Below, one piece after another: positions 7,335-7,744 of a stretch of DNA of 10,267 nt (positions within the stretch are counted from its first letter, which is position 1; each line of letters begins with the position of its first letter). The notes under the pieces are model-generated. The model saw only the letters and a program-made list of their open reading frames with translations. It made no database searches and was not told the origin of the DNA. This DNA comes from a virus (lineage: Duplodnaviria > Heunggongvirae > Uroviricota > Caudoviricetes), in IMG/VR virus record IMGVR_UViG_2660238499_000007, positions 1-10,267 of that record; one strand, 5' to 3'. Position numbers and translations under genes: made by a program.

Positions 7335-7400
7335 AACCATCTGCGGTGATGAATTATCTCTAGCGGTGTTGACATAAATACCACTGGCGGTGATACTAAA
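7335..7400 (+). promoter_or_regulatory. Lambda-type left operator OL3-OL2-OL1 and pL promoter (transcribing toward higher coordinates)
   Basis: OL3 AACCATCTGCGGTGATG (7335-7351), OL2 TATCTCTAGCGGTGTTG (7355-7371, one G-to-A change versus lambda), OL1 TACCACTGGCGGTGATA (7379-7395); -35 TTGACA (7369-7374) and -10 GATACT (7392-7397). The flanking upstream sequence (..CAATGCACCACTGCAAAAAATAAATTCATATAAAAAACATACAGATAACCATCTGCGG..) matches the classical lambda pL region; similarity to lambda ends just after the transcription start. Confidence 0.9.
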
Positions 7401-7465
7401 CACATCAGCAGGACGCACTACTCACCAGGGCGGTGAATATACAACGATTCAAATATGAATCTACG

Positions 7466-7480
7466 GCGCTGACAAAGCGC
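7466..7480 (+). promoter_or_regulatory. nutL boxB-like hairpin of P22 type
   Basis: GCGCTGACAAAGCGC, identical to the P22 boxB RNA hairpin as recalled, about 60 nt downstream of the pL start; no convincing boxA (CGCTCTT) seen just upstream. Confidence 0.5.
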
Positions 7481-7543
7481 AATAACCAAAGTGAACTTTG
7501 GGGTGAATGCAGAAGCTAACCTTCTCGGCGGAGGCGCTTTGCA

Positions 7544-7744
7544 ATGATTACGCTAAGCGAAATGCTTCGCTCATATAAACCAGATGAACACACTAAGGAC
7601 GCTATCGACTGGCTGGAAGATGATGACTGTAACTATCAGGAAAAAGCCGCTGAATGGTTCTGGGATGCAATAACCGAAAGAGTTAAGGCTGAATATGCCT
7701 TCGCAATATTCAAACGCAGACACATTTTTGGAGAAGCTGCATGA
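7544..7744 (+). CDS. Small acidic hypothetical protein (66 aa), first ORF of the pL operon, translationally coupled to the recT-like gene
   Basis: GGAGG RBS 9 nt upstream of ATG 7544; the stop overlaps the next start (ATGA at 7741-7744). MITLSEMLRSYKPDEHTKDAIDWLEDDDCNYQEKAAEWFWDAITERVKAEYAFAIFKRRHIFGEAA has no Arg-rich N-like motif; family not recognised. Confidence 0.5.
   Translation: MITLSEMLRSYKPDEHTKDAIDWLEDDDCNYQEKAAEWFWDAITERVKAEYAFAIFKRRHIFGEAA

Follow-up and report, generated by a model that had tools for sequence, protein, structure and literature searches.

In lambda, antitermination from pL relies on the boxB RNA of nutL, the arginine-rich motif of N and the Nus factors, and the same general logic applies to the HK97-type system considered here. 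The mEp234 record already annotates oL1 to oL3, pL, the boxA and boxB of nutL and the N gene, and HK97 has the same layout. In both phages N is a 127-aa protein (MTRRTQFKGNSRSRRRERLK...) whose gene starts about 165 nt after boxB. HK97-type N belongs to Pfam PF25694 and phrog_271, as does P22 gp24, with which it shares a GNxxxRRxER arginine-rich motif and the C-terminal sequence LPxVALYAAGxRKSKQxTAR. A literature search found no paper on HK97 boxB specifically; prior knowledge rests on the mEp234 and HK97 GenBank annotations.

We analysed a stretch of 10,267 nt (the window), which is a patchwork, multiply deleted, non-viable prophage remnant in E. coli. Over positions 7157-7505, its OL/pL/nutL region is about 91% identical to those of HK97, mEp234 and HK106, with an identical boxB. 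The match of lambda to the window ends at 7436, whereas that of the three other phages runs further, to 7505. The window corresponds to positions 2458-12724 of a 20-kb locus (L009) holding the whole remnant and its chromosomal flanks. Along this locus (1-20201), the gene order is sbmC, dacD, remnant, IS3-family element, int fragment, sbcB, yeeD, yeeE. In all copies the element lies between dacD and sbcB, and it has the characters of a defective (cryptic) prophage.

According to the ORF list and Pfam, the window carries genes for an Acyl_transf_3 acyltransferase (384-1553, plus strand), a P22-type tailspike with its head-binding domain (1589-3883, minus strand) and an Arc/Mnt repressor, mnt (3924-4217, plus strand). 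The acyltransferase gene adjoins the tailspike gene (384-3883), as in P22-like phages that modify the O antigen (serotype conversion). Both genes are intact, so that lysogenic-conversion functions may be what retains the remnant in the genome. What is left of a P22 gene-18/O-like replication protein, an N-terminal fragment (4225-4728, minus strand), directly abuts mnt. It is followed by cII (4909-5205, minus strand) and by cro (5343-5543, minus strand), called as an ORF and matched by Pfam Cro for the same gene in L009. cro is the first gene of the pR transcript, which also carries nutR. On the plus strand come an intact cI repressor gene (5644-6357; 237 aa, 235 of them identical to HK97 cI) and a gene for a KilA-N protein (6389-6730). 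Since cI controls pL and pR, both nut sites are transcribed under its control.

OL/pL reads rightward, on the plus strand. On its 3′ side are found, in order, a 66-aa ORF, a recT fragment of 111 codons, a phrog_9613 ORF and a theta/HOT pseudogene, and beyond the latter tandem terminators, a phrog_1229 ORF, an excisionase-like HTH protein and integrase fragments. The tandem intrinsic terminators (8767-8787 and 8798-8817, plus strand; terminator scan and fold) are the first plus-strand ones predicted downstream of pL by the scan, and pL transcripts made in the absence of N probably end there. Scanned against Rfam at E ≤ 1, the window gave just two sub-threshold chance matches over its whole length, one of them to rsmX, over the tandem terminators, and none at nutL.

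The pL promoter and the two nut sites

The first-pass annotation had described OL and pL as lambda-identical. The operators were located by alignment to lambda, HK97 and mEp234 and by the mEp234 and lambda annotations, with oL3 at 7335-7351, oL2 at 7355-7371 and oL1 at 7379-7395 (plus strand). A promoter scan, in which 10 of 12 positions matched, placed the -35 hexamer of pL, TTGACA, at 7369-7374 and its -10 hexamer, GATACT, at 7392-7397 (plus strand). Both hexamers are those of lambda. The region as a whole is near-identical to lambda rather than strictly so: G replaces A at 7351, the outermost base of oL3, A replaces G at 7362 in oL2, and two bases between -10 and +1 also differ. Homology to lambda and the mEp234 annotation would place the transcription start of pL at about 7404. 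The variants at 7351 and 7362 are common to the window lineage and the E. coli 1008S19 prophage, lambda and HK97 being different at these positions. In one of the copies, L014, position 7351 has mutated again, from G to T.

The boxB of nutL, GCGCTGACAAAGCGC, is found at 7466-7480 (plus strand), 62 nt past this presumed start, and is predicted to fold into a 5-bp stem with a GACAA loop. It is identical to the boxB of HK97, mEp234 and 1008S19 and, at 15 of 15 positions, to that of P22 nutL. Therefore, the perfect P22-type boxB noticed earlier about 60 nt after the pL start is indeed present. Its position is that of the feature labelled 'putative nutL boxB' in the mEp234 record. After boxB comes a further hairpin, CCAAAGTGAACTTTGG, followed by GGGTG (7486-7501, plus strand; alignment and fold); this leader hairpin is found in lambda, HK97 and P22 too.

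No match to the boxA sequence CGCTCTTTA within two mismatches was found on the plus strand over 7076-9562, nor is there any boxA-like sequence between the pL start and boxB (7404-7465) in the HK97-type nutL. P22 nutL has CGCTCTTTA 8 nt before its boxB, whereas the nutL of the element is without it. In HK97 and mEp234, boxA is likewise wanting from nutL, and the mEp234 depositors flagged just a weak CGCACTACT. The sequence CGCTCTT(T/A)A is present in lambda nutL, in P22 nutL and in the element's own nutR.

On the other arm, nutR starts 8 nt beyond the cro stop codon. Its boxA, CGCTCTTTT (5335-5327, minus strand), has one mismatch to CGCTCTTTA and is identical to that of HK97. Downstream of it lies a boxB, TCGCTGACAAAGCGA (5304-5290, minus strand), identified by a core scan and by its position, with a loop and inner stem as in the left boxB and a U-A closing pair. 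This agrees with the related boxB that had been reported for nutR. The 146-nt cro-cII spacer that includes nutR is 100% identical to HK97.

We then considered whether the boxB-like hairpins could be coincidental. The 11-nt boxB core, GCTGACAAAGC, occurs exactly twice in the window, and both occurrences are at the positions expected for lambdoid nut sites, nutL soon after pL and nutR between cro and cII. Chance would give 0.2 matches at one mismatch. The GC-rich 5-bp stem and GACAA pentaloop are those of the P22/HK97 class. Coincidence is thus contradicted, and nutL and nutR are, with high probability, genuine HK97-type N-utilisation sites with a boxB of the P22 class, a statement that we make jointly with the explanation by deletion given below.

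Loss of N and the joint at 7554/7555

A cognate arginine-rich N is absent from the element. The window was searched by tblastn with HK97 N, P22 gp24, mEpX1 N, an HK022-Nun-like protein and lambda N, and nothing better than an E value of about 0.1 was obtained. At E ≤ 1, the same five queries had no match in the whole-remnant 20-kb locus either, and as positive controls they retrieved N in HK97, P22, mEpX1 and two E. coli prophages. A Pfam search of the pL-operon ORFs gave no PF25694 match. Overall, neither the window nor the 20-kb locus contains an N, a Nun or a protein with an arginine-rich motif, as the first-pass annotation had stated for the window. It had also correctly described the first ORF after nutL (7544-7744, plus strand) as encoding an acidic protein of 66 aa devoid of an arginine-rich motif. 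This protein, with 15 acidic and 9 basic residues, of which four are arginines, has no Pfam match.

A second internal deletion, from N to just before recT, had been proposed as one cause of this absence. It is supported by both flanking parents and could be mapped to the base. On the left, window positions 4838-7555 are 99.8% identical to the prophage of E. coli 1008S19. Past 7555, 1008S19 continues for 54 nt to the start of an intact HK97-type N (127 aa, 99% identity over this length). On the right, the window shares 97.7-100% identity, starting at 7554, with mEpX1 and with the 2016C04-116 and JKHS016 prophages. The sequence from there on corresponds to codon 41 and the following codons of a 102-103-aa gene (mEpX1_035, phrog_3486), which lies directly upstream of recT in mEpX1, HK140, Kapi1 and the 2016C04-116 and JKHS016 prophages. 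The 1008S19 match ends at 7555 and that of the right parents starts at 7554, so that the two homologies overlap by two bases (TA; 7554-7555, plus strand), which is typical of illegitimate deletion.

The right end of the deletion falls inside the gene upstream of recT, showing that the 66-aa ORF is a chimeric remnant and not a substitute for N. In tblastn, its product is 96.8% identical to residues 41-103 of mEpX1_035, and it matches positions 40-102 of 102 of phrog_3486, a family to which no function is assigned. Its Shine-Dalgarno sequence GGAGG (7530-7534), its ATG and its first three codons come from a parental 22-codon leader ORF, whose ATG became joined, in the same reading frame, to the 63 C-terminal residues of the 103-aa phrog_3486 protein. 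In 1008S19 (L001 6707-6775), the leader ORF, MITLPELVARLYSPPKFTRRSI, is preceded by a GGAGG Shine-Dalgarno sequence and overlaps the N start codon through ATGA; window 7530-7555 is the start of this ORF. The arrangement suggests that, in the 1008S19-type leader variant, translation of N may be coupled to that of the leader peptide. The HK97 leader differs from the 1008S19 variant at the leader-ORF region.

In relatives with this left arm, about 1.55-1.8 kb separate the N start from codon 41 of the phrog_3486 gene. The lost segment, probably of ~1.6-1.8 kb, would have comprised N and a few small genes such as ral or sieB; its size and content are estimates from mosaic relatives, because no single sequenced relative has both flanks.

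The scar is identical in nine other assemblies, E. coli EC2641 and the loci L009-L016. The latter are eight contigs (gut metagenomes, one NCBI genome and Logan runs), 99.8-99.97% identical to the window where they overlap it. Three of the eight cover its full length, and all eight carry identical scar, pL, boxB and nutR. EC2641 has the same scar together with a further deletion starting at 7608. An exact-match scan of genome and metagenome contigs for the 40-nt junction gave no hit; the scar was recovered by BLAST in EC2641 and through an exact-match protein search with the chimeric ORF, whose 66-aa product is indexed in 74 blocks of a public assembly collection. Finding the same scar across copies shows that the deletion of N is old relative to the spread of the lineage and is not an assembly artefact.

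Decay is visible elsewhere in the element. The 5′ fragment of recT (7741-8076, plus strand) retains 111 of about 300 codons and matches positions 4-76 of 198 of the Pfam RecT profile. A second deletion in the left arm, at 8074/8075, removed the gene beyond codon 110. Indeed, the 2016C04-116 prophage (L007) matches 7554-8075 at 100% and its match resumes at 8074, corresponding to L007 8799. With respect to this prophage, 3,997 bp (about 4.0 kb, from the rest of recT through a DUF550 gene) were lost. At 8074-8075, the two matches also show a 2-nt overlap. On the other arm, O is cut to its N-terminal domain and joined to mnt, and the genes from P through the tail genes are gone except for the tailspike. 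The losses thus comprise the C-terminal part of O, the later replication genes, nin, Q, the lysis genes, the morphogenesis genes save the tailspike, and a working integrase. In int, a 1-nt deletion at 9899 causes a frameshift in the window and in most copies, L011 and L013 keeping the extra C, and in the longer contigs the gene is interrupted by the IS3-family element. Judged by this gene content, the element is left without the means to replicate, to excise efficiently, to lyse the cell or to make particles.

In the DNA polymerase III theta (HOT-like) gene, an internal stop or frameshift has left two ORFs, 8468-8605 and 8547-8747, a defect also annotated in the 2016C04-116 and JKHS016 prophages, which look intact.

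The nut sites after the loss of N

All these data are best accounted for if the nut sites are relics in a decayed prophage whose N went with a small deletion. We consider this explanation, which amounts to ordinary prophage decay, very likely to be correct. The ancestor would have had the HK97-like order cI-OL/pL-nutL-N. An illegitimate deletion with the 2-nt TA overlap would then have joined the nutL-N leader, 12 nt into the leader ORF, to codon 41 of the phrog_3486 gene. N and its neighbours (about 1.6-1.8 kb) would have been removed and the in-frame chimeric ORF of 66 aa created. In the present state, pL and pR would be held shut by cI. On derepression, the transcripts would carry boxB RNA, with no N to load Nus factors on RNA polymerase, and pL transcription would go no further than the tandem terminators at 8767-8817. 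In cis, the nut sites would be functionless.

Outside one recombination tract, the nine near-identical copies show about 16 substitutions over 10 kb, and none of these affects a nut site in any copy. We discarded this conservation as evidence of function, since copies that similar are not informative. On the relic explanation, the persistence of the nut sites reflects the youth of the copies, in which mutations have not had time to build up at these sites. Two other features of the alignment were observed. L013 shows 11 substitutions in 112 nt (8875-8986), resembling a recombination tract, and a C to T change at 2654 in L009 and L012 goes along with a split tailspike gene call.

The pR region (window 5560-5600, minus strand) was examined in loci L009-L016. 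The -10 hexamer GATAAT, ancestral and kept in L011, L013, EC2641, 1008S19 and HK97, is changed to GATAGT at 5569 in seven of nine copies, the derived state. The -35 hexamer TTGACT has become TTGGCT in the window alone, through a change at 5593, and TTAACT in L014 alone, through a change at 5594. Within cro, codon Q16 is changed to a stop at 5498 in L016 only. Three of the about 16 substitution sites are therefore located within the 12 nt of the pR hexamers, for which a post hoc binomial probability of about 1e-6 was calculated. This clustering suggests that pR/cro activity may be selected against in the remnant.

The loss of N may be viewed as one step in the domestication of the remnant into a permanent host module. 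Such a module would associate an HK97/lambda-type cI, for superinfection immunity, with the tailspike and the O-antigen acyltransferase. The three independent mutations in the pR hexamers and the cro nonsense mutation would represent the next step, suggesting selection to lock the switch in the cI-on state. Taken together, these two steps form a tentative proposal that we regard as possible though rather unlikely. Even if it were true, the nut sites would still be relics, and the remnant would constitute a natural experiment in freezing a bistable switch. The knock-down mutations of pR and cro among the copies are, to us, more intriguing than the nut sites without N.

The persistence of the nut sites could also be read as dependence on N supplied in trans, an option already raised by the first-pass annotation. 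An HK97/P22-type N from a co-resident or superinfecting phage would trans-activate the remnant, carrying pL/pR transcription past the terminators, for instance into the xis-like gene, and the nut sites would have been kept for this reason. In favour of this, HK97-type N is common in E. coli prophages, as exemplified by 1008S19, both boxB hairpins, the nutR boxA, pL and cI are intact, and the remnant is widespread and stably inherited. However, cI blocks pL and pR without SOS induction, so that a superinfecting heteroimmune phage would meet no nut RNA. Nothing useful lies downstream either, int being broken and replication and late genes missing. Trans-activation would serve no obvious purpose, since without replication, late, head and tail genes the element cannot form a phage. 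The intactness of the nut sites is already explained by the youth of the copies, at about 16 SNPs per 10 kb, and the knock-down of pR in several copies is the opposite of what would be expected under selection for expression. For these reasons, rescue in trans appears improbable.

Still less credible is the idea that the 66-aa ORF, or another small ORF of the pL operon, encodes a non-canonical antiterminator replacing N. The 66-aa ORF sits at the position of N, and its ATG is preceded, at 9 nt, by a good Shine-Dalgarno sequence (GGAGG). However, its product, with a net charge of about -6, corresponds to the C-terminal 63 residues of a phrog_3486 protein, and intact phages and prophages (mEpX1, 2016C04-116, JKHS016) have this protein alongside a normal N, which argues that it is no substitute for N. 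Its match to phrog_3486, in place of membership in PF25694/phrog_271 and of an N-terminal arginine-rich motif, also speaks against an N analogue. The sole arginine run in the pL-operon ORFs, MFRRRR, opens ORF 8468-8605. This ORF was rejected as a substitute, as it is the 5′ half of the theta (HOT-like) pseudogene (Pfam E = 3e-15), a gene also found in prophages with their own N-like protein. The homology results thus already largely refute this alternative.

Equally implausible is a pL leader giving factor-independent antitermination in the manner of HK022 put RNA, with N not required. The 142-nt leader does fold more stably than its shuffled versions (z = -3.7), but this fold is made up of boxB and small hairpins also present in the lambda and P22 leaders, and no Rfam family matched the region. 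N lies directly downstream of the identical leader of 1008S19 and also of the HK97 and mEp234 leaders, which share about 91% identity with it.

Relic nut sites left by decay, our preferred explanation, have little import for antitermination biology, as the annotations of HK97, mEp234 and HK106 already cover this type of nut site and N, and a decaying prophage that loses genes can be expected to leave orphan cis sites behind. In practice, the consequences concern annotation. The 66-aa ORF is to be treated as a chimeric pseudogene product, and the element as a cryptic prophage that is not inducible to phage. The dated and shared deletion scar provides a handy lineage marker for the dacD-sbcB remnant.

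Comparison with described phages and cryptic prophages

With the immunity and antitermination module of HK97, mEp234 and HK106, phages that encode a 127-aa N, the element shares layout and spacing, and its nutR is 100% identical to that of HK97. As compared to HK97, mEp234 and HK106, it is without N and the following genes, and it carries one substitution in each of oL2 and oL3. Its leader between boxB and the N position is the 1008S19 variant, not the HK97 variant.

The likeness to P22 is narrower. Only the 15 nt of the left boxB are identical to P22, within flanks that are HK97-type. The nutR boxB of P22, CCGCCGACAACGCGG, is unlike that of the element; flanks, operators and repressor differ too, and P22 gp24 has no homologue in the element.

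Near-identity to lambda extends over the operators, the pL hexamers and roughly the first 30 nt of the transcript. From about +33 on, lambda boxB (GCCCTGAAGAAGGGC) and boxA are replaced in the element, and lambda N is absent. The first-pass annotation had drawn attention to a mosaic joint between lambda-type immunity and P22-type nut close to the pL start. Such a joint is present, lambda similarity fading at about +17 to +33, but it is not special to the element. HK97, mEp234 and HK106 already have the same arrangement, and the mosaic is therefore known and inherited. The combination of lambda-like immunity with a boxB and N of the P22 class is likewise already known.

Cryptic, multiply deleted lambdoid prophages of E. 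coli, such as the K-12 remnants, form a known general class. Like them, the element is a patchwork produced by internal deletions, with an IS insertion and a broken integrase, and has kept its repressor and lysogenic-conversion genes. Unlike this class in general, it is a P22-like element at the dacD-sbcB site that retains a tailspike, an acyltransferase, mnt and an HK97-type immunity region.
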